DNA from: an uncultured Bacilli bacterium
GTDB taxonomy: Bacteria; Bacillota_I; Bacilli_A; RF39; UBA660
Reading direction: 5' to 3'
Length of the DNA: 64,000 bases
NCBI GenBank assembly: GCA_934190785.1
Contig: CAKPTA010000002.1
Span: 146,269 to 210,268 of the forward strand
Of this stretch, positions 5,316 to 63,176 are shown piece by piece; positions within the stretch are counted from its first letter, which is position 1, and each line of letters opens with the position of its first letter. The translations under genes and the position numbers were made by a program. Below the pieces are notes generated by a model. That model was not told the origin of the DNA and did no database searches. It saw only the letters and a program-made list of their open reading frames with translations.

Positions 5316-8300
5316 ATGAGTATTTTTGATAAATTAATAGATATAACATCAGATTCTAGGATAATCGGGTTGACAAAAGAATTAAAATCGATGTACATTT
5401 CTAAATTATTTTCAACAGATAAAAAATCAATTTTAGTTGTAAATAACTCTTTATATGAAGCAAATTTGATATATCAATCTCTACAAAACTATACTGATAA
5501 AGTTTTGTTTTTTCCAATGGATGATTTTTTAACAAGTGAAGCTATAGCTGCAAGTCCTGAATTATCAATAACAAGACTTGAAACTTTAAATACATTATTA
5601 AAAAAAGAAAACTATATAGTTGTTACAAATTTAATGGGTTATTTACGTTTCTTACCTAAAAAAAGTATTTATGAACAATCAATTTTATCATTAAAAATCA
5701 ATCACGAATATAATATGAATATAATTATACAAAAATTAAATGATCTCGGATACAGTCGAGAGCCGCTTGTTGAAAAAACAGGGGACTATGCTGTGAGAGG
5801 GTTTGTTATAGATGTTTTTCCTGTTGGTTGTGAAAATCCAATTCGTTTAGAGTATTTTGGTGATGAAATTCAATCAATAAGAACGTTTAATGTTGAAACA
5901 CAACGTACCATTCATGACATACAAAATACCGTTATTTATCCATATTATGAAAATATTATTAATTTAAATGATGAAAAAATGGTTAGCAATATTTCTGGTT
6001 ATTTAGATAATTATATTGTTGTTTATAATGAGTATAGTGAGATTAAACAAGGTTACTTATTGTTAGAGGAAGATATTTTAAATTATAAAAATGAACAAAA
6101 TATAGAATCATCAAAAAAATATATGTTTTCATTTGATGAATTAAGTGAGTCAGATGAAATATTCTTTGAAAAATATGATGAAAATATAAATAGTGTAGAT
6201 AATACAATAATATATAATTCATATCAATTAGATTCTTTTGAAAGTACTATTATTTTAAAAAAGTATTTAAATCAAAATATAAAATCACATAAAACAATTG
6301 TTATTTGTTTATCCAATAGATATAGTTTAAATAAAGTAGAAGACTATTTAAAAAATGAAAAAATTATTATTACAAATGAAAATGAAATATATGAAAATTA
6401 TATAAATTTAATTGTTAAAAATATATCAGAAGGATTTAGTTTGAATAATTATATTTTTATATCAGAAAGAGAATTATTTAATCGAAATTCTAATTCACAA
6501 AAATATAATTCAAAATTCAGATATGGTAAAAAAATTAGGGATATAAACAAATTAAATATTGGTGATTATATTGTTCATAATACTCATGGGATAGGTAAAT
6601 ATTTAGGATTAAGTGTACTGACAAAAAATGGCTTAAAAAAAGACTATTTAGTTTTAGAGTATAAGGGTGGAGATAAGTTATATATTCCTGTTGAAAAAAT
6701 AGAATCTATTAGTAAGTATTCATCTAATGAAGGGCTAACACCACCATTAAATAAACTTGGTGGAACAGAATGGGCCAAAACCAAAATGCGAATTCAAAAG
6801 AAACTTGAAAATATGGCAGGTGAATTATTAGAATTATATGCATTAAGAGAAGCGAGTGTTGGATTTTCATTTTTACCAGATTCAAAAGAACAACTAGAAT
6901 TTGAGAAAGAATTTAAATATACTGAAACAGAAGATCAAATAAAAGCAATTAACGAAATCAAAAAAGATATGGAAGATGTTCATCCGATGGATAGATTATT
7001 ATGTGGAGACGTTGGGTTTGGTAAAACCGAAGTAGCATTTAGAGCAATGTTTAAAGCTATTATGTCTGGTAAGCAGGTAGCGTATCTTTGCCCTACAACA
7101 ATTCTATCATCTCAACATTATAACAGTGCTTTAGAGAGATTTAGTAGTTTTGCTGTTAATATTGGGTTATTAAACAGATTCACAACAGGACAAAAGTTAT
7201 CTAATTTAAAAGAAGGTATAAAGAATGGTGCAATAGATATTGTAATTGGTACGCATAGATTATTAAGTGAAGATATAAGCTTTAAAAACTTAGGATTATT
7301 AGTTATAGATGAAGAGCAAAGATTTGGCGTTAAACAAAAAGAACAAATTAAAAAGTATAAAAATAATATAGACATTTTAACTTTATCAGCAACACCAATA
7401 CCGCGAACACTTCAAATGTCAATGACTGGAATTCGTAGTTTATCATTAATAGAAACACCTCCATATAATAGATATCCTATTCAAACTTATGTTTTACAAC
7501 AAAATAAAGCGGTTATAAAGGATGCTATATATAAAGAGTTATCGAGAAATGGGCAAGTTTTTATTCTTTATAATCATGTTCAAGAAATGAATAGCAAAGC
7601 TATGGAAATATCTGCATTAGTACCAGATGCTAAAATAGTTTGTGCTCATGGCCGAATGACAAAAGCAGAACTTGAAAATACTATGATGGAGTTTATTCAA
7701 AAAAAATATGATATTTTATTATGTACAACAATTATAGAAACAGGAATTGATATACCAAATGTCAATACTTTGATAATTATGGATGCAGATAATTTTGGCC
7801 TTTCACAGTTATATCAAATTCGTGGTAGAGTAGGAAGAAGTGATAAGATTGCATATTGCTATCTTATGTATAAACAGGGTAAAGTTTTAACAGAAATAGC
7901 ACAAAAAAGATTGGATGTAATAAAAGAGTTTACACAACTTGGAAGTGGTTTTTCAATTGCTATGCGTGATTTATCAATAAGAGGTGCAGGGGATTTATTA
8001 GGAAGTGAACAAGCTGGCTTTATTGATTCTGTTGGTATAGAGCTTTATTTAAAAATGTTGAATGATGAAATAGCAAAATTACAAGGAAAAAATATCATTG
8101 AACCATCAACAAGTAACATGCCACTTGTTGATGTTGGAACTACAATATCAGATGATTATGTATCTGATGTTGATGTCAAGATAGAAATTCATAAAAAGAT
8201 TAATACAATTGATTCTCTTCAAAAATTAGAACAGGTAAAAGATGAATTAGAAGATAGATTTGGTAATGTTAGTGATTCAACATTGATATATATGCATGAA

Positions 8301-48168: not shown

Positions 48169-48834
48169 GTGTTACGTTATAAAATATGTGTTTTATTTTT
48201 ATTTATTGTTGGTATATGTTCTTCAAGTTTTGTTTTAGCAAGAGATAATAGTTTACCTCTTTTTGGTAAGGTTATATATATTGACCCAGGTCATGGAGGT
48301 GTTGATCCAGGGGCTATGTATAAAGATATTAAAGAAAAAGATATTAATTTAAGTATTAGTAATGTTATATCCGATAAACTTACGAAACTTGGTGCAATTG
48401 TGTATTTAACCAGATATGATGATTATGATTTAGCTATAACAAATACAATAAATCGAAAACGAAGTGATTTATCAAGACGTGGGAATATAATTAATAGATC
48501 AAATTGCGATATATTTTTATCCATACATTTGAATGCTGAAGAAACAGGAATATGGAGAGGTGCCCAAGTATTTTATAATAATGAAAATAAAGAAAATGAG
48601 GTACTTGCTAAATTATTGCAAAAGAATTTTAATAAAAGACTTAATAGTAATAGAGAGTATAAATTAGCTAATGATTTATATCTCCAAAAAAGAGTTGATA
48701 GGCCAGGAGTATTAATTGAAGTTGGCTTTTTAAGTAATGCAAGTGATAGATATCTTCTTAAACAAGCAAGTTATCAAAATAAAGTTGCAGTAGTTGTAAC
48801 TGATAGTATAGTTGAATATTTTTTACAAAAATAG
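48169..48834 (+). CDS. cwlD: germination-specific N-acetylmuramoyl-L-alanine amidase CwlD-like (Amidase_3)
   Basis: Signal/TM N-terminus. VIYIDPGHGGVDPGA...LSIHLNAEE (Zn ligands). Position after rpsI/ybaJ matches Bacillus cwlD. Confidence 0.8.
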   Translation: MLRYKICVLFLFIVGICSSSFVLARDNSLPLFGKVIYIDPGHGGVDPGAMYKDIKEKDINLSISNVISDKLTKLGAIVYLTRYDDYDLAITNTINRKRSDLSRRGNIINRSNCDIFLSIHLNAEETGIWRGAQVFYNNENKENEVLAKLLQKNFNKRLNSNREYKLANDLYLQKRVDRPGVLIEVGFLSNASDRYLLKQASYQNKVAVVVTDSIVEYFLQK

Positions 48835-48948
48835 TTTAATATCACAAAATTCACACATTATATTGATAGTGTATAATTATACAATTCATTTCACCCAGTA
48901 GCATTTTTATGATATAATCTTTATAGTTATAATAGGAGAGGATATCAT

Positions 48949-49881
48949 ATGGGTAAAAAAATATTTAAAACTTTAGATGAACAAATAGAAATATTACAAA
49001 ATAAAGGTTTAATTATTAATGATATAGATAATGCTAAACAAATATTATTTCGTGAAAACTATTTCTTTGTTAGTGGTTATAGACATTTATTTATGCGCTC
49101 TTCTAAAGAAAATATTTTTATTAAAGGAACTACATTTGATGAGTTGTATGCAACATTTGTTTTTGATAGAAGAATTCGTAATATCATGTTTAAGTATATT
49201 TTAATAATTGAAAATAATATGAAATCAATCATTAGTTATCAATTATCAAAAAAATATGGTATTAAAGAAAGAGATTACTTAAATCCTAAAAATTTTATAC
49301 AAGATGGAATAAAATCAAGACAAGTAAATGATGTAATAGCAAAAATGAAAAGACAAATTCGTGTTAACGGAAAGCAACATACAGCAACACTACATTATTT
49401 AAGTAATTATGGTTATATTCCTATGTGGATTTTAGTAAAAGTTTTATCTTTTGGTATTATTTCTGAATTATATAATATTCTAAAAGCAGAAGATGCATAT
49501 AGTATTGCAGAATATTATAATTTACAGCCTGATTCTCTTTCTATTTATTTAGCAATTTTATCTAATTATAGAAATGTATGTGCCCATGAAGATATTTTAT
49601 ATGACCATAGGATACAAAGGTCTATACCTGATACTAAATATCACTATTTACTTGATATTGAAGCGACAGATGAGGAATATAATTATGGTAAAAATGATTT
49701 GTTTGCCGTAATTATTATTATGAAATTTATGTTACAACCAACTGAGTTTCATGACCTTATCTATGAAATTGGGTATGAAATTGATATATTAGATGGAAAA
49801 GTTGATACAGTACCATTGAATTTAATTTTGAATAAAATTGGTTTTCCTAATAATTGGCGTGATATAGACGATTTAGATTAG
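48949..49881 (+). CDS. Abi_2 family (AbiD/AbiF/AbiR-like) abortive infection protein, HEPN-type
   Basis: 310 aa. The N-terminus LDEQIEILQNKGLIINDIDNAKQILFRENYFFVSGY is characteristic of Abi_2. HEPN motif RNVCAHEDIL (Rx4H). Extended -10 promoter TGATATAAT at 48921-29. Confidence 0.75.
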   Translation: MGKKIFKTLDEQIEILQNKGLIINDIDNAKQILFRENYFFVSGYRHLFMRSSKENIFIKGTTFDELYATFVFDRRIRNIMFKYILIIENNMKSIISYQLSKKYGIKERDYLNPKNFIQDGIKSRQVNDVIAKMKRQIRVNGKQHTATLHYLSNYGYIPMWILVKVLSFGIISELYNILKAEDAYSIAEYYNLQPDSLSIYLAILSNYRNVCAHEDILYDHRIQRSIPDTKYHYLLDIEATDEEYNYGKNDLFAVIIIMKFMLQPTEFHDLIYEIGYEIDILDGKVDTVPLNLILNKIGFPNNWRDIDDLD

Positions 49882-49889
49882 GAGGAGTT

Positions 49890-50969
49890 ATGAAAAAAAA
49901 GATATTATATGTGTCTAATATTCTTTTGGCTCTTATAATTGGGATATTAGGAACTTTATTGTACTTTAATTACAATAATAAAAGTGTAGAAGTTGTTTCT
50001 AAAAATTTACAAAATGTAACAATTACAGAAACAAATACAATAAAAAGTGCAATTGATAAAATATATGATTCTGTTGTCGTTGTTGAAGTAAGTAGCAGAA
50101 CTTCTAGTGGAACAGGAAGTGGATTTGTATATAAAAAAGAAAATGGAAAAGGATATATAATCACTAATCATCATGTTATAGAAGGCGCTGATACTATATA
50201 TGTAACAAATAGTGAAGGTGTAAAAGAAGAAGCAACATTACTTGGAAGTGATGAATATTCAGATATTGCAGTTTTGTCAGTAAATGATGATTTTGTAATA
50301 GGTGTTGCAACAATTGGCGATAGTACAAAATCAGAACTTGGCGATACTGTGTTTACAGTAGGATCTCCACTTGGTAGTAAGTATCAAGGAACGGTTACGA
50401 AAGGAATAATTTCTGGAAAAGATAGGCAAGTTACAGTAAGCCTTACAAATGGAAGTTTCATAATGGAGGTTTTACAAATAGATGCTGCTATTAATCCTGG
50501 AAATAGTGGAGGACCACTTGTTAACATCAATGGTGAGGTAATAGGTGTTAATTCACTTAAACTTGTAGAAGATGAAATAGAAGGAATGGGATTTGCAATT
50601 CCAATTGAACTTGCTATGTCTACTGTTGATAGTTTGGAAAAAGGCGAAAAGATTGTTAGGCCACAAATTGGTGTAGAAGTTGTTGACGTTGATAGTAAGT
50701 ATTTACTTGCACGTTCGAAAATAAAAATTGATTCTGATATTACTGCTGGAGTAGTTATAATATCAACAGTTTCTAATTATCCTGCAGAGAAGTCAGGATT
50801 AGAAGCAGGAGATGTTATAACAGAAGTAGATGGTGTAAAAATAACTGATTCAGCTCACTTCAAATATATATTGTATAAATATAATGTTGGTGATACGATA
50901 AAAGTTAAATATATTCGTAACGGTAAAGAAAAGGAAACTTCAATTAAGTTGTCAGTCGGAATCGAATAA
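49890..50969 (+). CDS. htrA: HtrA/DegP-family trypsin-like serine protease with PDZ domain
   Basis: N-terminal TM. Catalytic triad context TNHHV (His), D, and GNSGGPLVN (Ser). C-terminal PDZ. Confidence 0.85.
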   Translation: MKKKILYVSNILLALIIGILGTLLYFNYNNKSVEVVSKNLQNVTITETNTIKSAIDKIYDSVVVVEVSSRTSSGTGSGFVYKKENGKGYIITNHHVIEGADTIYVTNSEGVKEEATLLGSDEYSDIAVLSVNDDFVIGVATIGDSTKSELGDTVFTVGSPLGSKYQGTVTKGIISGKDRQVTVSLTNGSFIMEVLQIDAAINPGNSGGPLVNINGEVIGVNSLKLVEDEIEGMGFAIPIELAMSTVDSLEKGEKIVRPQIGVEVVDVDSKYLLARSKIKIDSDITAGVVIISTVSNYPAEKSGLEAGDVITEVDGVKITDSAHFKYILYKYNVGDTIKVKYIRNGKEKETSIKLSVGIE

Positions 50970-52787: not shown

Positions 52788-52919
52788 TATAGTTAGTAAT
52801 GAACATGTTTCATTACTTTTTTTATTTAAAATATATTATTAATTAACAATATATTAGATTTATGATAATTAATAACACATTTACGTCTTTTTCATAAAAT
52901 ATTTTTAGGAGGAATATGT

Positions 52920-53192
52920 ATGAATAACTATAAAATTGTTATTGATGCTGGTCATGGTGGAAGTGATCCAGGAGCCAGTGGAAATGGAATAATAGAAAAA
53001 GATTTAACTTTAAAAATATCACAATATATGTATGATAGATTTAGAGAATTAGGAATTCCTGTTACAATGACAAGAACAACAGATGAAACTGTTGAGCCAA
53101 CAGAAAGAGTCAACCGTATTTTAAATGCTTATGGTAATAGTAGTGATGTAATTGTCATTAGTAATCACATAAATGCAGGAGGAGAGACTTAG
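52920..53192 (+). pseudogene. truncated N-acetylmuramoyl-L-alanine amidase (Amidase_3) N-terminal fragment
   Basis: MNNYKIVIDAGHGGSDPGASGNG...ISNHINAGGET then stop at 90 aa. Amidase_3 catalytic domains run about 170-180 aa. No continuation appears in any downstream frame. The AT-rich island begins immediately after. Confidence 0.6.
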
Positions 53193-53472
53193 CTCTTACA
53201 TGGATTAAATTTATAAGGGTATTAAGATGGCTGTATTTAAATGATTGAGTTAGATAGTATAAATTATCTAGAACGATATTAAATGATGTTAAAATAGTGT
53301 TTATTTGAGAGATAAATGCTATTTTTTGCTTTTTAATTAAAAAACATTAAATTGTCCTGAAAATACTGAAAAAAATGTCAAAATATGATAATATATACTT
53401 GTGAGGATAAGCAGTATTTAATCTTTTTAAGATGGATACTGCTTATTTTTTGAAATAAAGGAAGTGCCAGTA

Positions 53473-56400
53473 ATGAATTATAAAGAAAGAGGATATCTAT
53501 TTCAAGATATATTTTCAACATATATAATTATTAAATATGTTAAACAAATATTATGTGGACAAAAGGTACAGGCAGAAGTGGTTTTAGATAAAAAGAATAG
53601 TAAAGATGATAAATTTGATGACTTAAAGATAATTAATAATGATGATATATTAGAAGTTCAATTAAAATATAAAGAAATAAAAGAAGAATTAGAATTATCC
53701 GATTTTTCAAATTATAGTGGTGACTTCAATCTCTATCAGTTTATTCGAAGTTATAAAAATGGAAAAAATAAACAGGTTTGTTTACTAATAAGCTTAAATA
53801 AAATTAAATTGTCGAACGAACTAATTAAAGTATTAATTTTAGAAGATGATAATAAATTTTTTTCAAATTCACACAGATATAAATTTAAAAAAACAAAACA
53901 GTTAATAAACCTTCTTTATAAAAAAAGATTATCTGCTAAAGAAAAGCCTAAAATAGATTATTCAGATTTGACAAAAAATGATATTGAAATTTTTTTGGAT
54001 AATTTTGTAATAGAAATTACTAATAAGTCTATTGTTAATAATAGTATAAAAGTAGAGGTATTAGACGAGATTAGTGATGACATTGAAAAAATATCAAAAA
54101 TACCCAAGCAAGTTCTATATAATGATATGATTGAGACTATAAGAGAATATAGAGCAGAAGATGAATATAGAAAAATTAGTATATCTGAAATAACTAAAAA
54201 ATGGATTGAAAGAATAAAATTGATGAATTATACAATTCCAGTTAATAATGAATTAAATGTTGATTATGATTGCTTTATATCTAGAAGAAATGATGTAAAA
54301 GCTATTTTAGAAAAATTTAATAATACAAATCTAATCCATGTTATTGGGCAACCAGGAGTAGGAAAAAGTTGGTTTTCTAAAGAATTAACAGATGAGTTAT
54401 GTAAGAAGAATATAAAAAATAGTACATATTACTTTTATTTTAATTATGAAGATGTTGATAAGGAAAAGAGATTAAATGAGTATAATTTTATTACTACTTT
54501 TAATTATAATTTACAAAAATTTCATGGTTATAATATAAATATTTTTAATATGAATTTTGAAAAATTAGTACTTGGCGATGATGGTGAAGAGCATTACATT
54601 ATTTTTGATGGTCTTGACCATATTATTAGAGAAAAAAATTCAAATAGTATTAATATAGGTAATTTGATTGAAAAAATTGTAGAATTTTCAAAGAACAATA
54701 AAAATGTAAAAGTTCTAATTTTATCACAGCCATTAGAAGGAATTAAAATTGAAAATATATATGAATTAAAAAATTTAAATGAGTATCAATCAAATAAACT
54801 AATAGAGTTATATTCTAGAACATTAGATTTTCCTTTGGAAAAATTAATTGATAAAAGATTTTATTACAATAGTTGTGGGAATCCATTATTATTAAAATAT
54901 ATGGTAACAGACTATATTTTAAACGGCAATTTAGTTGATTACAAAATTACCGATTTAAATGATTATTACAAAAATATTTTTGATGGCAAACAATTTGTTA
55001 TTTATATGTATTTTGCAATTTTAAGTTTTCCTATATCACCAAAAGAATTAGAAGAGATTTCTTCTATATCTTTAGAAGAAATAATAAAAGAATTGAAATG
55101 TATTAGAAATGTATTATTAATAAATGAAAAAAATGAATATACGATTTTCCATGAAAGTTTAAGAAGATACATTTTATCATTAAAACAACTAAATAAAGAT
55201 AAATTGATAATGGATATAATTAATTGGTTTAATACTAAAGATTTATATTTTGAATCTAAAAAATTTAATTATTATCCATCTTTTGTATTAGAAAATAAAA
55301 AATATGAGTTATTTGATGAGAAATTTAATTATCAAAAAATAAAAATGGCAATTATTCAAAATGCATATTCAAATAAAGAAGTCCATCTTTTTATTAGAAA
55401 TTTATATATTATAAGTCAACATAAGTCAGATTTTAAAATGCTGTATTACTTAGAATATTTTTATGATGCTTATTATACTTTTTCATATGACTTTGATGTA
55501 AATATATTTGAGAACTACATTTATATGCTCTATTACTCTGGTGAATTTGATTTAATTAGAAAATTGGTTTATACAAAGAATATATCAGAATTTTCTAATG
55601 TTAATCAGCAGTGGGAATATATGAGAAAAATACTTGTTTTTCTATTAAAAAATAAATTTGAATTAAATTATAAAGAAATAATTAATAAATATTTTAATCA
55701 TGATAAAAGCAATAAAGTAATAAGGATAAATGACTTATTAATATCTGATGATTATGATAATATTAGATTAATATATGAATACTTAAAATATAATAAAATA
55801 TCTGATTTAAAGTTGACAGAAAATAATTTAGATATTAGTTCAGATTTATATGTATTATTGAATGCATTATTAAAAAATGAGAAAAGTCTTTTTATAGAAA
55901 CTTTTTATAAAAAGGATATTTTTCTATTAAAAAATAAAAATAAAGATTTATCAAATTTATTATTAAAATTATGTGAAAAGAAGTATATTTCTTCTTTAAA
56001 TAATTTATTTTTGCTAATTAATTATATATTTAATAACAATGAAAAAAAAATAAACAAATTGTTTTCTAATTGGGATCAAACATTTGAAAATGTTCCTTGT
56101 GTTTATAAATTTATTTGTATTTTTATAAAGTTGCTCTTGAATGATAATACTACAGAAACAGAAATTGCTGATTTTTTTAATCAATATAATTTTGAAACAC
56201 TAAACTTTGAAGGATATTTAAGCAATTATAATAATAATGATATAAATTTTATTGGTAAACTTGTTGTACTAAGCAGTAAGAAGAATTTTGTTATTCAATG
56301 CTTTATGAAATTTAAAGAAAGGATTTCAAAAGAAGCTGCAAAGCATTATCATGACGGAATTATATCCCTGTTAGCATCTATATATAGTCAAATTATAGAG

Positions 56401-58335
56401 AATGTCAAATATAATAATATTATATTAAATAAAGATACTTTAAATGAAATATTGATTAGGAATAATTATCAACAAAGTAATATAACAGAATTTGAAAATA
56501 ATATCATTAATTATACTTTATCAATAATTTCCGGAGAATTTAATGATATATATTATAATAATATAATTAAATATATGTTTAGTTACGGAAGCTATAGAGA
56601 TATACAAATATGGGAATTAGAAGATATACTTTCAAGATTAATTGGTTCAAGTAAAATTGATTTAAACAAATTTATACAATTAGTAACAATTGCCTATAAT
56701 GCAATAGACAGAATGGATAGAGCAAAGGATGTTTGGCATGTACCTAATGAACTAATAAAAATGTATTCTGACAAAATATCTCCTATAGAGGCAATAAATG
56801 TTTTCTTTAGTTTTTTAGAAACCTTTGACTATGATATAAGAGATAAAGATGATTTATTTTCACATTTATATGAAAATCTAAGCAATAATGAAAAGAATAA
56901 TAAGATAAATTTTATATATAATTATTGGCGATTCATGAATAAAAATATTACTTATCAATTTGATTCTAATAATACCGAACTAAAACAATGCATTAAAAAT
57001 TCTACTAAAGCACAGTTTAATTTTCTAAAATACAATATTTTGGAGTCATTAAAATTGAATGATATAGAATTGAATTATAATATACTAAAAGAAAAGTTTA
57101 ACAAGAAAAAATTGATATTAAATTATACATATCATCCACTTAAAAATTATTTGAAAAATGATAATCCCTATACTAATTCTATTAAATTTAATTCTTTTGC
57201 GGAATTCATTGAAAAAACAAATAATAGTTATTTTGATTGTAGAACTATTAATTTTGATAGTTTTATAAAAAATATTAAAGAATTAAATGATTCACAAGAT
57301 GTATTTAATTTATTTATAAATACAAAAAATTCTTCATACTTAAATTATATTTATGAAATATTTGAAAAAAACAATCTTGATTACAATACAATAAACGAAG
57401 ATATAATAGTAGAAATTTTAGTTGGAATTTACTATAGAAGCAATGGATATGTTTCTAACATGTCATATGATGAAATATTTGAAAAAGCCTTGCAAATTTC
57501 TCCAACAAAAGCAAAAGAGTCACTTAAAAGATATGTAATAAATGATAATAATATCGATTTAGGTAGAAAATCAGGAAAAATATTTAAATACCTGCTTAAT
57601 GATAATGACATTGATGAAATCTATAATTATGTTATTGAAATATATTTTTCACGATTACCAAATTATATAGAAATTACTAGGTATTGGAATTTAAATAAAT
57701 TTGATAATAATGATATTCTTTTAAATTATTTTTTAATAAAAATAATGAATTCAGGATTAAAACATAACCTATCTACAACTGAAGAAATGATTTTTTTAAA
57801 ACTGTTTGAGGTAAAAAAATTTTCAAATAATAAGATAGTTTATATGAAAAACATGGAAGGAGACTCATTATTTTATATTATTAATTTTTTGAAAATGTAC
57901 AGTAGGGTATTACGAATTAACTATGACTCTTTTTTGAATTATAAAAATATTAATAAATTTAATTATATTAAATTTCAAATAAATAATTCTAAAACAGAGA
58001 TTGTTGAATCAGAACGAAGTTTAGTAAATGATGAGTTAGATACAAAATTAGTAAGAAATTATAGAGGGTTAATAGCTATAGAATCTGACTTGGTATATTG
58101 GTATGAAGCAAATATGTATCAAGATTTTGGTGACGATTTGTTAGATAGAAATATAAATTATAAAATATTTCATATGCATAAAGTAAATGTTTTAAAATAT
58201 TTAAAAAACAGATTTTTATGTAATTTAAAATTAAAGATTTATTGGAGGAAGATTAATAAAATTATTAGAAAATCTTATTATGTTTTCCCTTCTTCATCTG
58301 TCATTTATATATATAATGAAAGAGACAATATATGA
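53473..58335 (+). CDS. very large (about 1,620 aa) STAND/NACHT-like P-loop NTPase; candidate antiviral STAND (Avs-like) sensor-effector protein
   Basis: RBS AAAGGAAG and ATG at 53473; the track's GTG at 53464 is less likely. Walker A VIGQPGVGKSW at about aa 292. Walker B HYIIFDGLDH is the STAND-type hhhhDGLD. Downstream TIFHESLRRYI resembles the NACHT FxHxSxQEYL motif. The N-terminal roughly 250 aa contain a D...ExQxK-like pattern (FDDLKIINNDDILEVQLKYK), a possible PD-(D/E)xK-like nuclease. The C-terminal roughly 1,000 aa are N/K/Y/I-rich, helical and repeat-like. No signal peptide. Very low GC. Confidence 0.7.
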   Translation: MNYKERGYLFQDIFSTYIIIKYVKQILCGQKVQAEVVLDKKNSKDDKFDDLKIINNDDILEVQLKYKEIKEELELSDFSNYSGDFNLYQFIRSYKNGKNKQVCLLISLNKIKLSNELIKVLILEDDNKFFSNSHRYKFKKTKQLINLLYKKRLSAKEKPKIDYSDLTKNDIEIFLDNFVIEITNKSIVNNSIKVEVLDEISDDIEKISKIPKQVLYNDMIETIREYRAEDEYRKISISEITKKWIERIKLMNYTIPVNNELNVDYDCFISRRNDVKAILEKFNNTNLIHVIGQPGVGKSWFSKELTDELCKKNIKNSTYYFYFNYEDVDKEKRLNEYNFITTFNYNLQKFHGYNINIFNMNFEKLVLGDDGEEHYIIFDGLDHIIREKNSNSINIGNLIEKIVEFSKNNKNVKVLILSQPLEGIKIENIYELKNLNEYQSNKLIELYSRTLDFPLEKLIDKRFYYNSCGNPLLLKYMVTDYILNGNLVDYKITDLNDYYKNIFDGKQFVIYMYFAILSFPISPKELEEISSISLEEIIKELKCIRNVLLINEKNEYTIFHESLRRYILSLKQLNKDKLIMDIINWFNTKDLYFESKKFNYYPSFVLENKKYELFDEKFNYQKIKMAIIQNAYSNKEVHLFIRNLYIISQHKSDFKMLYYLEYFYDAYYTFSYDFDVNIFENYIYMLYYSGEFDLIRKLVYTKNISEFSNVNQQWEYMRKILVFLLKNKFELNYKEIINKYFNHDKSNKVIRINDLLISDDYDNIRLIYEYLKYNKISDLKLTENNLDISSDLYVLLNALLKNEKSLFIETFYKKDIFLLKNKNKDLSNLLLKLCEKKYISSLNNLFLLINYIFNNNEKKINKLFSNWDQTFENVPCVYKFICIFIKLLLNDNTTETEIADFFNQYNFETLNFEGYLSNYNNNDINFIGKLVVLSSKKNFVIQCFMKFKERISKEAAKHYHDGIISLLASIYSQIIENVKYNNIILNKDTLNEILIRNNYQQSNITEFENNIINYTLSIISGEFNDIYYNNIIKYMFSYGSYRDIQIWELEDILSRLIGSSKIDLNKFIQLVTIAYNAIDRMDRAKDVWHVPNELIKMYSDKISPIEAINVFFSFLETFDYDIRDKDDLFSHLYENLSNNEKNNKINFIYNYWRFMNKNITYQFDSNNTELKQCIKNSTKAQFNFLKYNILESLKLNDIELNYNILKEKFNKKKLILNYTYHPLKNYLKNDNPYTNSIKFNSFAEFIEKTNNSYFDCRTINFDSFIKNIKELNDSQDVFNLFINTKNSSYLNYIYEIFEKNNLDYNTINEDIIVEILVGIYYRSNGYVSNMSYDEIFEKALQISPTKAKESLKRYVINDNNIDLGRKSGKIFKYLLNDNDIDEIYNYVIEIYFSRLPNYIEITRYWNLNKFDNNDILLNYFLIKIMNSGLKHNLSTTEEMIFLKLFEVKKFSNNKIVYMKNMEGDSLFYIINFLKMYSRVLRINYDSFLNYKNINKFNYIKFQINNSKTEIVESERSLVNDELDTKLVRNYRGLIAIESDLVYWYEANMYQDFGDDLLDRNINYKIFHMHKVNVLKYLKNRFLCNLKLKIYWRKINKIIRKSYYVFPSSSVIYIYNERDNI

Positions 58336-58366
58336 TATAATTATATATAGTTAGGAGGTTTTAATT

Positions 58367-59197
58367 ATGACTGAAAAAGAATTAGATTCAAGTGTTAACG
58401 AATATGAAGAAAAATATAAATCTAATAATTATGTAAAACAATTGAAGTGGGATATGGCTATTGGACTTCAAGAAGTAGATAATTTAAAGCCTTCTAAATA
58501 TTTAGAAAAATTATTAAAGGAAGAAGTAGAAGGTAATTTAACAATAGAAGAAGTAGAAAAAGAATTAAGAGAATATTATATTGAAAAAGAAAGTAAAAAT
58601 GAAGTAAATCATAATGAATTAGAATGTGATTTTGTATCTACTAGAATAGTTGAATTATTAAATAAAGATAATTTCGATTTATCAGTTAATTATTTAAAAT
58701 ACGTTCATAAATTTTTATTTCAAGATGTTTATGAATTTGTTGGTGAATTTAGAAAAATAGATTTTTCTAAACAGGAAAAGATACTTAACAATGATTCAGT
58801 AGTATATGGAGATTGTACTACTTTAAATCAATCACTAGAATACGATATATCGAAAGAATTAGAAAAAAACTATAAAGAAATGAATATAGTTGAAGTTATT
58901 AATAACATAACTAAATTTTCTTCTAGTATATGGCAAGTGCATCCTTTTAGAGAAGGAAATACTAGAACTACAGCCTTATTTATTGAAAAGTATTTAATTA
59001 GTTTAGGTTATAACTTAGATAATAGTTTATTTAAAGATAAATCGGTTTATTTTAGAAATGCTTTAGTAAGAAGTAATTATTTTAATAATTATTTGAATAT
59101 AAAAGAAGATAGTAGTTATTTATTTAAATTTTATGAAAATTTATTATTAGGTAAGAACAATAACCTACATTCAAAGGATTTAATTGTTCAAGAATAA
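58367..59197 (+). CDS. Fic/Doc (Fido) family protein with non-canonical active-site motif
   Basis: 276 aa. HPFREGNTRTTALFIEKYL matches HPFx(D/E)GNGRxxR except the second Gly is Thr and the final Arg is Ala. Starts 32 nt after the NTPase stop, with RBS AGGAGG, so likely co-transcribed. Terminator at 59209-59236. Confidence 0.7.
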   Translation: MTEKELDSSVNEYEEKYKSNNYVKQLKWDMAIGLQEVDNLKPSKYLEKLLKEEVEGNLTIEEVEKELREYYIEKESKNEVNHNELECDFVSTRIVELLNKDNFDLSVNYLKYVHKFLFQDVYEFVGEFRKIDFSKQEKILNNDSVVYGDCTTLNQSLEYDISKELEKNYKEMNIVEVINNITKFSSSIWQVHPFREGNTRTTALFIEKYLISLGYNLDNSLFKDKSVYFRNALVRSNYFNNYLNIKEDSSYLFKFYENLLLGKNNNLHSKDLIVQE

Positions 59198-59208
59198 TTG
59201 TTTGATAA

Positions 59209-59236
59209 AAAGTAATTAAACTATTACTTTTTTTAG
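59209..59236 (+). terminator. rho-independent terminator of the NTPase-Fic operon
   Basis: Perfect stem AAAGTAAT / ATTACTTT, loop TAAACT, then T7. Confidence 0.6.
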
Positions 59237-59287
59237 CAATTTTGATATATTGGTTATGCAAGGAAAAAATGGTAATACATTTTTGCA

Positions 59288-59326
59288 AGGGCACTATCTA
59301 GCGGTAGAGCCCTATTTTTTATTTTT
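59288..59326 (+). terminator. second hairpin terminator upstream of hsdM
   Basis: GC-containing stem GGGCACTATC / GGTAGAGCCC (one mismatch, one G-U pair) followed by TATTTTTTATTTTT. Confidence 0.45.
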
Positions 59327-59463
59327 GATTATGTAATAAGAGAATGTATTTTCTCTTTTTTTTTTTATAATTTTTTAGTTCAAATCCAAAGTTTACCAAA
59401 TTTCATGATATAATTAATATGATGGATGTTTATAATCTTATATAAATATAGGAGAGGGAGATT

Positions 59464-60963
59464 ATGGAAGAAAAAGATTTAAAAAAATTAGAAGATAAAT
59501 TATGGGCAGCTGCCGACAAAATGAGAGGTGCTGTTTCTGTATCAGATTATAAATTTATAGTACTAGGGTTAATATTCTTAAAATATATTTCTGATTCTTT
59601 TGAAGAAAAATATAATGAACTTGTAGATGAAGGTGCTGGATTAGAAGAAGAAAGAGATTGTTATACAGCAGAAAATATATTCTATGTTCCAAAAAATGCT
59701 AGATGGGAATATTTAGTAGAACATTCAAAGGATTCTAATATTGGTGAAATTATAGATGATGCTTTAACATTAATAGAAAAAGAAAATACATCATTGAAGA
59801 ATGTTTTACCAAAAGATTACAACTCTCCAACAATGAGAAATGTCAATTTAGGTGAACTACTAGATTTATTTACCAATATTAAAGTTGGAACTAAAGAAGC
59901 AATTCAAAAAGATATTTTAGGAAGAATATATGAATATTTTTTAGGTCAATTTGCCAAAAATGAATTACAAAAAGGTGGAGAATTTTATACACCAGCTTGC
60001 TTAGTTAGAACTATGGTTGAATGTATTGAACCATTTAAAGGTAAAGTATATGATCCAGCTTGTGGTTCTGGTGGAATGTTTATTCAATCAATGAAGTTTG
60101 TAGAAGAAAATCAAGGTAATATATATAATATTGGAATTTATGGACAAGAGAAAAATCCTACCACATGGCGACTTGCAAAAATGAACTTAGCTATAAGGTC
60201 TATGTATGGTGATTTAGGAAAATATGCGGCTGATACTTTTACTGAAGATTTACATAAAGATTTAAAAGCTGATTTTATACTTGCCAATCCACCATTTAAT
60301 CTTGAGTGGGATAGAGATAAAGTCGAAAATGATCCAAGATGGAGATATGGTTTAGCACCTAAAAACAATGCCAATTTTGCTTGGTTACAACACATGATAT
60401 CTAAGTTATCACAGAATGGTAAAATGGCTTGTATTTTAGCAAATGGTTCATTATCAGCAGGTGGTCAAGAGGGCGAAATAAGAAAAAAACTAATTGAAAA
60501 TGATTTAGTAGATTGTATCTTATCAATGCCTACTAACTTATTCTATACAGTTACCGTTCCATGTTCTATATGGATAATTAATAGAAATAAGAAACAAAAA
60601 GGTAAAACATTATTTATTAATGCAAATAATTTGGGTTCAATGGTAACTAGAAGATTAAGAGAGTTATCAGAAACAGATATTAAAAAAATTGCAGATACAT
60701 ATCATAGATATCAAAATGATGATAATTATGAAAATGTTAAAGGATTTTGTTATTCAGCAACTACAGAAGAAATAAGTGCCAATGATAATGTATTGACACC
60801 TGGTAGATATGTTGGAGTTGAAGAAAATCAATGTGATGATGTTCCGTTTGAAGAGAAAATGAAGAATATTACTTCAGAATTATCAAAGCAATTTGAAGAA
60901 TCACATAGATTAGAGGAAGAAATTAGAAAAAATATGAAAGCCATTGGTTTTGAGTTAGAATAA
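59464..60963 (+). CDS. hsdM: type I restriction-modification system DNA methyltransferase subunit HsdM (N6-adenine)
   Basis: 499 aa. N-terminal HsdM_N (LWAAADKMRG). SAM motif DPACGSGGMF. Catalytic NPPF (ILANPPFNLEW). An extended -10 TGATATAAT lies at 59406-14. Confidence 0.9.
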   Translation: MEEKDLKKLEDKLWAAADKMRGAVSVSDYKFIVLGLIFLKYISDSFEEKYNELVDEGAGLEEERDCYTAENIFYVPKNARWEYLVEHSKDSNIGEIIDDALTLIEKENTSLKNVLPKDYNSPTMRNVNLGELLDLFTNIKVGTKEAIQKDILGRIYEYFLGQFAKNELQKGGEFYTPACLVRTMVECIEPFKGKVYDPACGSGGMFIQSMKFVEENQGNIYNIGIYGQEKNPTTWRLAKMNLAIRSMYGDLGKYAADTFTEDLHKDLKADFILANPPFNLEWDRDKVENDPRWRYGLAPKNNANFAWLQHMISKLSQNGKMACILANGSLSAGGQEGEIRKKLIENDLVDCILSMPTNLFYTVTVPCSIWIINRNKKQKGKTLFINANNLGSMVTRRLRELSETDIKKIADTYHRYQNDDNYENVKGFCYSATTEEISANDNVLTPGRYVGVEENQCDDVPFEEKMKNITSELSKQFEESHRLEEEIRKNMKAIGFELE

Positions 60964-61007
60964 TCGTTTGTAGTATAATAATTACCGTCTTAAAGGGGGA
61001 AATTATT

Positions 61008-62006
61008 ATGAAAACGGAAGTAATATCTAATATTACAAAAGACATGGAAGATAGTCTTACTGATTATCAACTAAATAAGCTTAAAGAGAGCTTAATAATA
61101 AACTTCGAAGGAGTAGAGTTTATTATAAAAACTGATGAAGTAAAACATCAGGAAGAATTAGATGAAAATAAGAATATGATTGATTCATTTATTTCATCTA
61201 AACAAGTTGAAGGTTGTTCAGAACGAACAATTAAATACTATAAAGAAATTATTGAAAAATTTGTTAATAGTTTTGATAAAAGTATTAAACAAATATCAAC
61301 AAATGAAATAAGAAATTATTTATCTAATTATAAAGATAATAGTTCTTGTGGATCTACAACTATAGATAATATAAGAAGGGTATTATCATCATTCTTCTCT
61401 TGGTTAGAAGATGAGGATTATATTATAAAGAGTCCAGTTAGACGAATACATAAAATAAAAACAGCAGTGGTTGTTAAAGATGTTTTAACTGATGAAAATT
61501 TAGAAAGGTTAAGAGATGAATGTGAAAACGTAAGAGATTTATCACTAATAGAATTATTAATTTCAACAGGAATGAGAGTTGGAGAACTTGTTAATTTAAA
61601 TATTAATAGTCTTAATTTTGAAGATCGTTCTTGTATTGTATTAGGTAAAGGTAATAAAGAAAGAGAAGTATATTTTGATGCAAAAACAAAATTGCATTTA
61701 AAAAAATATATTTCAAAAAGAAATGATTCAAACGATGCCTTATTTGTATCAATGAGAGAACCACATCAGAAATTATCTATTTCTGGTATTGAATTAATAA
61801 TTAGAACATTAGGAATAAATTCAAATATAAATAAAGTTCATCCACACAAATTTAGAAGAACATTAGCAACAATGGCAATAGATAAAGGTATGCCAGTTGA
61901 ACAAGTTCAAAAGTTGCTAGGTCATGTAAAAATAGAAACTACAATGAACTATGCTTTAGTTAATCAAAGTAATGTTAAAATATCACATAGAAGATATATA
62001 GCATAG
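61008..62006 (+). CDS. tyrosine site-specific recombinase (phage integrase / XerC-XerD family)
   Basis: 332 aa. N-terminal SAM-like core-binding domain. C-terminal catalytic region with R (GMRVGEL), HPHKFRRT and LGHVKIETTMNYA (H-x-x-R...Y). Confidence 0.8.
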   Translation: MKTEVISNITKDMEDSLTDYQLNKLKESLIINFEGVEFIIKTDEVKHQEELDENKNMIDSFISSKQVEGCSERTIKYYKEIIEKFVNSFDKSIKQISTNEIRNYLSNYKDNSSCGSTTIDNIRRVLSSFFSWLEDEDYIIKSPVRRIHKIKTAVVVKDVLTDENLERLRDECENVRDLSLIELLISTGMRVGELVNLNINSLNFEDRSCIVLGKGNKEREVYFDAKTKLHLKKYISKRNDSNDALFVSMREPHQKLSISGIELIIRTLGINSNINKVHPHKFRRTLATMAIDKGMPVEQVQKLLGHVKIETTMNYALVNQSNVKISHRRYIA

Positions 62007-62033
62007 AATTATTATTTGTAAAAGGAGAGAAAT

Positions 62034-63176
62034 ATGGAGTTAAAAGAATTATGCAAAATTAAGCATGGTTTTGCTTTTAAAGGAAAGGATATAATAAAAA
62101 ATTATTCTACTAAATATGTTTTAGTTACTCCTGGTAATTTTAATATAGGTGGTGGTTTTAAGAAAGATAAATGTAAATATTTTTCTAAAAATGGTAACAT
62201 TCCAAAGGATTATATTTTAAGAGAAAATGATTTGATAGTTACCATGACCGATTTGAGTGTAAAGTCTGACACATTAGGCTACTCTGCACTTATACCAAAA
62301 GATAATAATATATATCTTCATAATCAACGAATTGGATTAGTTCATGATATAGATGAATCTAAAGTATTAAAAGATTATTTATACTGGTTTATGAGAACTA
62401 AAAAATATCAACAAGAGGTTGTAGCTTCTCAATCAGGTACTGCAATTCATCATACATCTCCAGATCGAATATTAAATATAGAAATCGATTTGCCATCAAT
62501 AGATAATCAGAGAAAAATAGTTAAAATATTGTCTGATGTAGAACATAAAATTAAAAATAATAATGATACAAATAATAATTTGTACGAGGTATCAAAACAA
62601 TTGTTATTAAAATATTTAGATGAAAATAAGAGTTTTGATGAAATTAATATAAGTAAATTTCTAAATATATTTACTGGAAAGAAGAATGCTAACGAAACAT
62701 CTCCAACTGGTAAATATAAATTCTTCTCTTGTGCACCAGAAAGTTTATTATCTGATACATATTTATGTGATAGTGCTGCAATAATAGTTGCTGGTAATGG
62801 TGCATATACAGGAAGAACAAGATTTTATGATGGTAAGTTTGAACTTTATCAAAGAACTTATGGATTAACATTGAAAGATGGCTTTGAAAAGAATAATATA
62901 TATGGTTTATATGTATTTATGAAAACTATTTTTGAACCAGATAAGATGGGTGGAACTCATGGATCAGCTATACCATATATTGTGTTATCAGATTTGACAG
63001 ATTATAAATTAAAATATAACAAAGTTGAATTTGATAGATTTTCAAATTTAGTAAGTGGTAATATAAAAATGATTCAAGAAAATGAAAAATCTAATGAAAA
63101 ATTATCAGAACTAAGAGATACATTATTACCAAAATTAATGAATGGTGAAATAGATTTAGATAATATAGAGATTTAA
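62034..63176 (+). CDS. hsdS: type I restriction-modification specificity subunit HsdS (two target-recognition domains)
   Basis: 380 aa. Central conserved spacer (LPSIDNQRKIVKILSDVEHKI) and C-terminal conserved helix (LRDTLLPKLMNGEIDL) flank two variable TRDs. Confidence 0.85.
   Translation: MELKELCKIKHGFAFKGKDIIKNYSTKYVLVTPGNFNIGGGFKKDKCKYFSKNGNIPKDYILRENDLIVTMTDLSVKSDTLGYSALIPKDNNIYLHNQRIGLVHDIDESKVLKDYLYWFMRTKKYQQEVVASQSGTAIHHTSPDRILNIEIDLPSIDNQRKIVKILSDVEHKIKNNNDTNNNLYEVSKQLLLKYLDENKSFDEINISKFLNIFTGKKNANETSPTGKYKFFSCAPESLLSDTYLCDSAAIIVAGNGAYTGRTRFYDGKFELYQRTYGLTLKDGFEKNNIYGLYVFMKTIFEPDKMGGTHGSAIPYIVLSDLTDYKLKYNKVEFDRFSNLVSGNIKMIQENEKSNEKLSELRDTLLPKLMNGEIDLDNIEI

Follow-up and report, generated by a model that had tools for sequence, protein, structure and literature searches.

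Does a giant STAND NTPase that is closely followed by a non-canonical Fic protein constitute a two-gene antiviral system, or do the two genes stand side by side for another reason? The question is raised by positions 53473-59197 of a 64,000-nucleotide stretch (the window) of contig CAKPTA010000002.1, which derives from an uncultured "Bacilli bacterium" of gut metagenomes, and for which an earlier note made from the sequence alone had proposed such a pair as an undescribed candidate defense system. Our analysis indicates that the large protein is probably a sequence-divergent additional Avs-like (antiviral STAND) protein, and that its adjacency to the Fic gene reflects the architecture of a mobile island, not a two-gene system. 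The G+C content, about 25-35% across the window, which also harbors a ribosomal-protein operon, drops to 17-23% over 53-59 kb, where the two genes lie. The large gene and its parts are as follows, in window coordinates:

53473-58335, plus strand: candidate Avs3-like antiviral STAND protein of 1,620 amino acids (aa), which alone fills variable cargo slot 1 (53467-58326)
53473-54237, plus strand: aa 1-255, predicted Cap4-like (DUF4297-type) PD-(D/E)xK nuclease domain with candidate catalytic residues D39, D49/D50, Q63 and K65
54265-55332, plus strand: aa ~265-620, STAND NTPase module with a P-loop nucleotide-binding domain, a helical domain and a winged helix with the FHES motif
55333-58332, plus strand: aa ~620-1620, all-alpha solenoid C-terminus and presumed sensor, delineated by an AlphaFold2 model, Foldseek and invariant columns

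The gene starts at ATG 53473; the mechanically delimited open reading frame (ORF) opens at GTG 53464, yet all homologs begin with MNYKERGY. Its NTPase core displays a Walker A motif GQPGVGKS (residues 292-299), a Walker B motif IIFDGLDH (376-383) and the motif FHESLRRYI (559-567), the core residues of which, including G292, K298, S299, D379 and D382, are invariant in the alignment of 19 NTPase homologs on which motif invariance was judged. With the Pfam cut-off used for the window proteins (E <= 0.01), residues 272-418 match NPHP3_N, a NACHT-type P-loop domain (E 3e-10), and the NACHT model itself gives only sub-threshold matches. The features that define STAND proteins are present, namely the succession of nucleotide-binding domain, helical domain and winged helix, with the conserved histidine of the latter.

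The structure was predicted with AlphaFold2 in two pieces, aa 1-275 and aa 261-1450 of the 1,620-aa protein. The first model, built on a 14-sequence alignment, is confident (predicted local distance difference test score, pLDDT, 87.2; predicted template-modeling score 0.83) and shows an alpha-beta-beta-beta core, with a helix at residues 3-27 and strands at 34-38, 51-55 and 58-67; the N-terminal domain (N-domain) displays the alpha-beta-beta-beta-alpha-beta core with D...(D/E/Q)xK residues that is diagnostic of PD-(D/E)xK nucleases. D39, D49, D50, Q63 and K65 are invariant among the homologs and would fit the active site of such nucleases, a placement that we infer from the model. The top match of this domain among solved structures is SeAvs3 (8dgc_A, ranked first), and its structural matches include a tail of restriction-endonuclease-fold proteins. 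The second model (pLDDT 80.8) consists almost entirely of helices and forms an all-alpha solenoid from about residue 620; SeAvs3 is again the top match for the NTPase with the C-terminus (8dgc_A first; Foldseek alignment of 1,411 columns). None of the Pfam repeat families matches the C-terminal region. It features strongly conserved motifs, MFSYGSYRDIQIWEL (1035-1049), RMDRAKDVWH (1080-1089) and GxKSGKIFKYL (1364-1374), and the invariant polar blocks at aa 1035-1092 and 1318-1396 comprise SYGSYRDIQIWEL, RMDRAKDVWH, GxYYRxxxxxxNM and GxKSGKIFKYL. The domains that had been read from the sequence alone are thus borne out: the STAND core with all three motifs is there, the suspected nuclease-like N-terminus is predicted to adopt a Cap4-like fold, the helical C-terminus of about 1,000 aa emerges as the modeled solenoid, and both models support the effector-NTPase-sensor layout of antiviral STANDs.

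The family centered on this protein is small, with 24 full-length clusters found in a word-indexed search of 5.8 billion proteins. An N-domain profile recovered 83 representatives among 1.84 billion, mostly proteins of 1,400-2,040 aa in which the same N-domain is followed by NPHP3_N. In the predicted models the closest known relative, for both the effector and the NTPase-sensor portion, is SeAvs3 (antiviral STAND type 3; PDB 8dgc), from which the protein nevertheless differs in having no detectable sequence similarity, in its length (1,620 against 2,028 aa), in its origin (a low-GC Firmicute against Salmonella) and in the invariant motifs of its own that its sensor bears. With SeAvs7 and other Cap4-nuclease Avs proteins it shares the combination of a Cap4 nuclease effector, a STAND and a tetratricopeptide-repeat-like sensor (PMC13581612). 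In Avs3 and Avs7, target-induced, ATP-dependent tetramerization activates the Cap4 nuclease, and no fewer than 90 STAND families of distinct structure are associated with defense (PMC13581612); Fic, Clostridia and Firmicutes go unmentioned in that study. Whereas the Cap4, LmuA, HamA and HerA-associated DUF4297 nucleases are joined to SAVED, SMC-like or helicase partners, here the nuclease domain is fused to a STAND module.

We consider it likely that the NTPase is a stand-alone Avs3-type sensor, in which the binding of a phage protein leads to ATP-dependent oligomerization and nuclease activation. By analogy with SeAvs3 and SeAvs7, from which we infer its antiviral function, trigger and nuclease activity, the C-terminal helical solenoid would bind a conserved phage protein, such recognition being directed in Avs3 at the phage large terminase; this binding would lift autoinhibition, upon which the NTPase could bind ATP and drive oligomerization; and the N-terminal Cap4-like PD-(D/E)xK domains so assembled would cleave DNA, resulting in abortion of the infection. 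The association with defense islands typical of Avs proteins is apparent both in its slot-mates and in the neighbors of its homologs, which include restriction-modification (RM), toxin-antitoxin (TA) and abortive infection (Abi) genes but no constant partner.

Is the Fic protein, then, a second component of such a system? The Fic gene begins 31 nt after the NTPase stop codon on the same strand, and a scan for consensus promoters and terminators is uninformative in DNA this AT-rich (81 promoter sites against 75 expected). Its features are:

58327-59240, plus strand: self-contained conserved Fic module, with an extended -10 (TG 58333-34, TATAAT 58336-58341), a ribosome-binding site (RBS, 58353-58358), the coding sequence (58367-59197) and a hairpin (~59207-59234)
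58940-58975, plus strand: aa 192-203 of the Fic protein, the active-site motif HPFREGNTRTTA, placed by alignment to Bep/VbhT structures

Looking from the NTPase side, this Fic gene directly follows the NTPase solely in close relatives, with 97% (L006), 90% (L002) and 83% (L007) identity. Homologs at 60% identity or less are without it and are instead found in a variety of other settings: beside Dcm and a MutH-like enzyme (L010, 60%); beside Metallophos, Dcm and HNH genes (L001, 55%); beside SocA/Panacea and DUF5677 (L011, 57%); beside a PDC-S07 NUDIX gene and a PD-T4-1/PDC-S36-like gene, followed by HTH_36 and a serine recombinase (L012, 56%); and, in the most distant ones (L003-L005, 37-44%), beside MazF, AbiEii-like (AAA_21) ATPases and Schlafen-type helicases. 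In L015 a SoFic gene (931-2043; PADLOC 4.9e-110) lies 256 nt upstream of an NTPase homolog with 57% identity. We considered this as a second independent STAND-Fic association and dropped it, SoFic being a known stand-alone system on the opposite side of the gene; it is most simply a case of defense-island clustering.

Looking from the Fic side, a scan of metagenomes yielded 80 Fic loci at 74-93% identity; in 53 of them the sequence extends 4.9 kb or more upstream of Fic, and the NTPase lies upstream in just one of these 53. The genes directly upstream in 48 loci sort into 36 clusters, with representatives matching AbiEi, IetS, HamB, Tmn, PD-Lambda-4, Ppl and PDC-M36A, and some matching nothing; PD-Lambda-4 has been termed Avs8 (PMC13581612). 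In three Fic clusters that we examined, Gabija (GajA+GajB), Hachiman (HamA+HamB) or an AAA_13 pair takes the position of the NTPase. The two families also differ vastly in size, the Fic family comprising more than 7,900 clusters (E <= 1e-10) against the 24 of the NTPase. Comparison by blastn with islands that bear other cargos delimits the unit that is exchanged: similarity spans ~53180-53466 and ends 7 nt before the NTPase ATG, returns at 58327-58331, overlapping the NTPase stop codon, and runs on to 59215-59332. In the alignment of right arms the Fic -10 (TG-A-TATAAT, 58333-58341), which overlaps the NTPase stop codon, is conserved; downstream of it come the RBS (AGGAGG) and the start codon (ATG) of Fic, and a terminator-like hairpin with a T-run lies 3' of Fic (~59207-59234). 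Because conservation of the flanks ceases at the NTPase borders and Fic has a promoter-like -10, an RBS and a terminator-like hairpin of its own, Fic makes up a module complete in itself, and of the two genes only the NTPase is cargo. The NTPase-Fic adjacency reflects island architecture, and Fic is a distinct gene that many such islands share. The earlier note had itself named absence of co-conservation in related genomes as the outcome that would speak against its dedicated pair, and such is the outcome, in both directions. It describes a junction in which Fic follows at 32 nt and shares a terminator; the gap is 31 nt, no terminator intervenes, a hairpin follows Fic, and Fic possesses its own promoter-like -10 and RBS.

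Neither is the Fic family undescribed as a candidate: residues 10-275 of the 276-aa protein align to positions 6-270 of the 377-position PADLOC profile PDC-S72 (E 1.1e-77). No published validation, or indeed any mention, of PDC-S72 was found in the literature, and the family is an already listed, unvalidated candidate. The Pfam Fic domain is complete (E 1.8e-11, profile positions 2-93 of 93), and the PDB matches are Bep, VbhT and Fic proteins. However, HPFREGNTRTTA differs from HxFx(D/E)GNGRxxR, the motif of canonical AMPylases, in that GNG is replaced with GNT and the final R with A, and 85 of 94 family members carry this identical form; the fixation of two changed phosphate-binding positions in these relatives suggests a conserved but altered Fic activity. 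No small ORF that might encode a separate antitoxin, as in FicT/FicA or VbhT/VbhA, is conserved next to Fic in the window or in the loci with other cargos. An N-terminal segment, AIGLQEVDNL, conserved in 62 of the 94 members, resembles the VbhA region but has L, D and N in place of the S, E and G of the inhibitory (S/T)xxxE(G/N) helix. Like PDC-S72 and SoFic, then, this is a single Fic-domain gene of defense islands; unlike SoFic, to which its match is weak (1.5e-5), it is missing Fic_N and bears the motif HPFREGNTRTTA, and it falls short of the PDC-S72 profile by about 100 aa. SoFic is a Fic protein that defends on its own (PMC12249575; PMC11514479).

The island in which both genes reside can be delimited with the help of the following features of the window:

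52920-53192, plus strand: 5' portion, encoding 90 aa, of a disrupted N-acetylmuramoyl-L-alanine amidase gene (Amidase_3 + LysM), matching Pfam Amidase_3 positions 1-79 of 174 (E 1.5e-20); left junction
53180-53466, plus strand: conserved left arm (leader), with a -10-like box, a hairpin (53410-53443), a T-run (53446-53451) and the RBS that serves the first cargo gene
59464-63176, plus strand: variable slot 2, with hsdM (59464-60963), a Xer-like tyrosine recombinase (61008-62006) and hsdS (62034-63176)

In most related loci the amidase fragment stands ahead of the cargo slot; L019 and L034 are without it. Its identity from host to host is 50-86% even where cargo and Fic do not differ, so that it belongs to the host DNA, and the left end of the element lies near 53180; a role for the fragment as part of the system or element was accordingly dropped. 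The full element is seen in L035, where the amidase 5' fragment is followed by the leader, Gabija, Fic, HipA_C, Dcm with a MwoI-like enzyme and HTH_36, and then, on the right, by a 37-aa ORF, a 554-aa large serine recombinase, a 289-aa gene and an ORF with the remainder of the amidase (Amidase_3 positions 121-173 and four LysM repeats). The amidase halves lie at 5726-6001 and 18650-19645 of L035. The amidase is split after ...SNHINAGG, and in L035 its frame resumes as ...GAEGAEIVYSLK... just upstream of the amidase-remainder ORF, beyond the serine recombinase, so that precise excision would restore the gene. On the contig of the window itself (L037), hsdS is followed by two small genes, hsdR (1,010 aa) and an HTH_36 module, all beyond the window, a continuation from which we estimate the island at ~18-20 kb. 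This is a mobile defense island that was placed in an amidase-LysM gene by a large serine recombinase. The earlier note was right to see here an AT-rich island inside an amidase gene beside a type I RM locus, the island being flanked by the Amidase_3 fragment on the left with the remainder seen in L035, and both hsdM and hsdS being confirmed. The Abi gene that it saw nearby is likewise real (Abi_2, 48949-49881). This gene follows an intact CwlD-like Amidase_3 gene (48169-48834) and precedes an HtrA-like protease, the three lying within 48169-50969; since the Abi_2-HtrA pair recurs in L032, L035 and L037, the Abi gene is not part of the island but of a conserved host neighborhood. Interruption of the sporulation gene cwlD itself, in the manner of skin and SPbeta, was considered and dropped: the CwlD-like gene is intact, and the interrupted gene, with its C-terminal LysM repeats, is a second amidase.

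The leader has an extended -10-like box (TG 53386-87, TAATAT 53389-53394) and a hairpin with the arms AGCAGTATTTAATCTT...AAGATGGATACTGCT followed by the T-run. Similarity by blastn to Gabija-carrying loci extends to 53466, and in L019, a locus without the amidase fragment, it starts at 53180. With nhmmer the leader is found once per locus, immediately 5' of the cargo, in 39 loci. It is near-invariant at 53380-53466 of the window and in L001, L007, L010, L016-L036, L042, L046-L048, L050, L057, L069, L081 and L094, irrespective of the cargo, of which there are at least 10 different ones. It is predicted to fold with a free energy of -22 kcal/mol (z -4), and the 15 conserved pairs of the hairpin show little covariation, too little to separate an RNA structure from a DNA site; no Rfam family matches within 52800-59500. 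By its sequence, the leader looks like an intrinsic terminator or attenuator between promoter and gene.

In slot 2, the Xer/integron-like recombinase gene stands between hsdM and hsdS as in phase-variable RM systems; as a sign of a shuffling hsdS locus it was discounted, as no inverted repeats were found in the hsdS region of the contig of the window (L037:12500-16600). In L034 (1-10846) two elements lie in tandem: the first comprises Fic, a Schlafen-type helicase, a serine recombinase and three small genes, and the left arm, Gabija and Fic of the second directly abut it with no amidase fragment between. Across the window and L016-L120, identical Fic-plus-cargo blocks adjoin amidase fragments that differ by 15-50%, which points to recent horizontal spread among related gut hosts. 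The slot 5' of Fic (L041-L120) is a defense-gene hotspot, with several occupants that have no PADLOC match. Candidate new systems among them include a 1,230-aa NPHP3_N STAND (L046:3266-6958), a 910-aa protein matching neither Pfam nor PADLOC (L062:4146-6878) and a cassette of three genes that includes one for a QueC-like protein (L042:4380-6957; also L048). With SCCmec-adjacent cassettes, P4-like satellites and pipolins the island shares a conserved backbone with a recombinase and swappable defense cargo (PMC11470126, PMC11551731); it differs from them in its site, an amidase-LysM gene, in the hairpin leader 5' of slot 1 and in the position of Fic between the slots. Nearly all of our literature searching found no description of this island.

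Several observations weigh against the interpretation of the NTPase as a stand-alone Avs3-type sensor. Its likeness to Avs3 is structural only, between a predicted model and a solved structure, and the global template-modeling score to Avs3 is low (0.33), as is expected for multi-domain proteins in differing conformations. At the sequence level, the PADLOC Avs models give zero matches to the window NTPase or P0018, a weak Avs1b match (1.4e-4) being limited to the distant relative P0184; the Pfam DUF4297/Cap4 nuclease model is unmatched at the cut-off given above; and PDB sequence searches with the NTPase family and its N-domain returned nothing meaningful. The conservation of the C-terminal motifs, judged from the alignment, exceeds what is expected of a fast-evolving sensor, and these blocks may constitute an interface, a ligand site or an additional activity beyond passive sensing. 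Moreover, no terminator separates the NTPase from Fic, and their adjacency persists at 83-97% identity across four different outer contexts (the window, L002, L006 and L007), a shallow clade in which co-transcription and some functional interplay might occur. This terminator-free junction on one strand, the retention of the pair in that clade and the SoFic gene upstream of the L015 homolog would be accommodated by a dedicated NTPase-Fic defense system, in which the STAND sensor either switches on a Fic AMPylase/phosphotransferase or is its substrate. We regard such a system as highly improbable, and it is largely refuted by the co-occurrence data: the homologs of L001, L010, L011, L012 and L003-L005 do without this Fic, 36 different clusters alternate upstream of it, the junction of cargo and backbone falls at the NTPase stop codon, with the conserved -10 and RBS of Fic beyond it, and the SoFic of L015, on the opposite flank of the NTPase gene, represents a known single-gene system; the NTPase, furthermore, appears from its model to bear a nuclease effector already.

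A looser dependence is also conceivable, wherein Fic is a generic chassis of the island that cooperates with any upstream cargo as a fail-safe toxin, an expression regulator or an addiction module. It accords with the maintenance of Fic at 84-93% identity in more than 120 clusters formed at 90% while both adjoining slots vary, with its constant position directly 3' of slot 1 and with the fixation of its non-canonical motif. We nevertheless deem it unlikely, given that the islands of L001, L010 and L012 share the left arm yet are without Fic, that many Fic loci at 74-84% identity are without the amidase fragment and the leader, and that the stand-alone SoFic already defends alone (PMC12249575; PMC11514479). 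An extension of this idea, on which we are more doubtful still, is that hairpin leader and Fic together make up a functional chassis on which immune sensors can be swapped, the STAND-Fic arrangement being one case of a general Fic-plus-sensor partnership. The leader would then gate the expression of toxic cargo, and Fic, for which HPFREGNTRTTA implies altered chemistry, would act with or downstream of diverse systems as a shared fail-safe effector or in counter-counter-defense. Finally, the large protein could be a STAND-regulated nuclease in the service of the element itself, for exclusion of competitors, island maintenance or DNA processing, as might be suggested by its invariable occurrence on mobile islands and by the proximity of FtsK/SSB genes to the L006 copy. 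This strikes us as very unlikely: the same slot carries a series of validated anti-phage systems, the genes beside distant homologs are of the RM, TA and Abi kinds and not those of transfer, and both the architecture and the top structural matches are those of Avs3 and Avs4.

The stand-alone Avs3-type sensor that we favor creates no new category, as both STAND sensors with a Cap4 nuclease and defense hotspots on integrative elements (for the latter, PMC11470126, PMC11551731) are established. If confirmed, the NTPase would represent a Firmicute Avs3-like family that present sequence-model detectors miss; it would aid defense annotation in uncultured gut Bacilli and offer a new sensor for work on phage triggers. 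Possibly the more useful by-product is the island itself, with its exactly bounded cargo slots and at least 36 different genes adjoining Fic: because several occupants match no known system, the slot is a guilt-by-position source of new defense genes.

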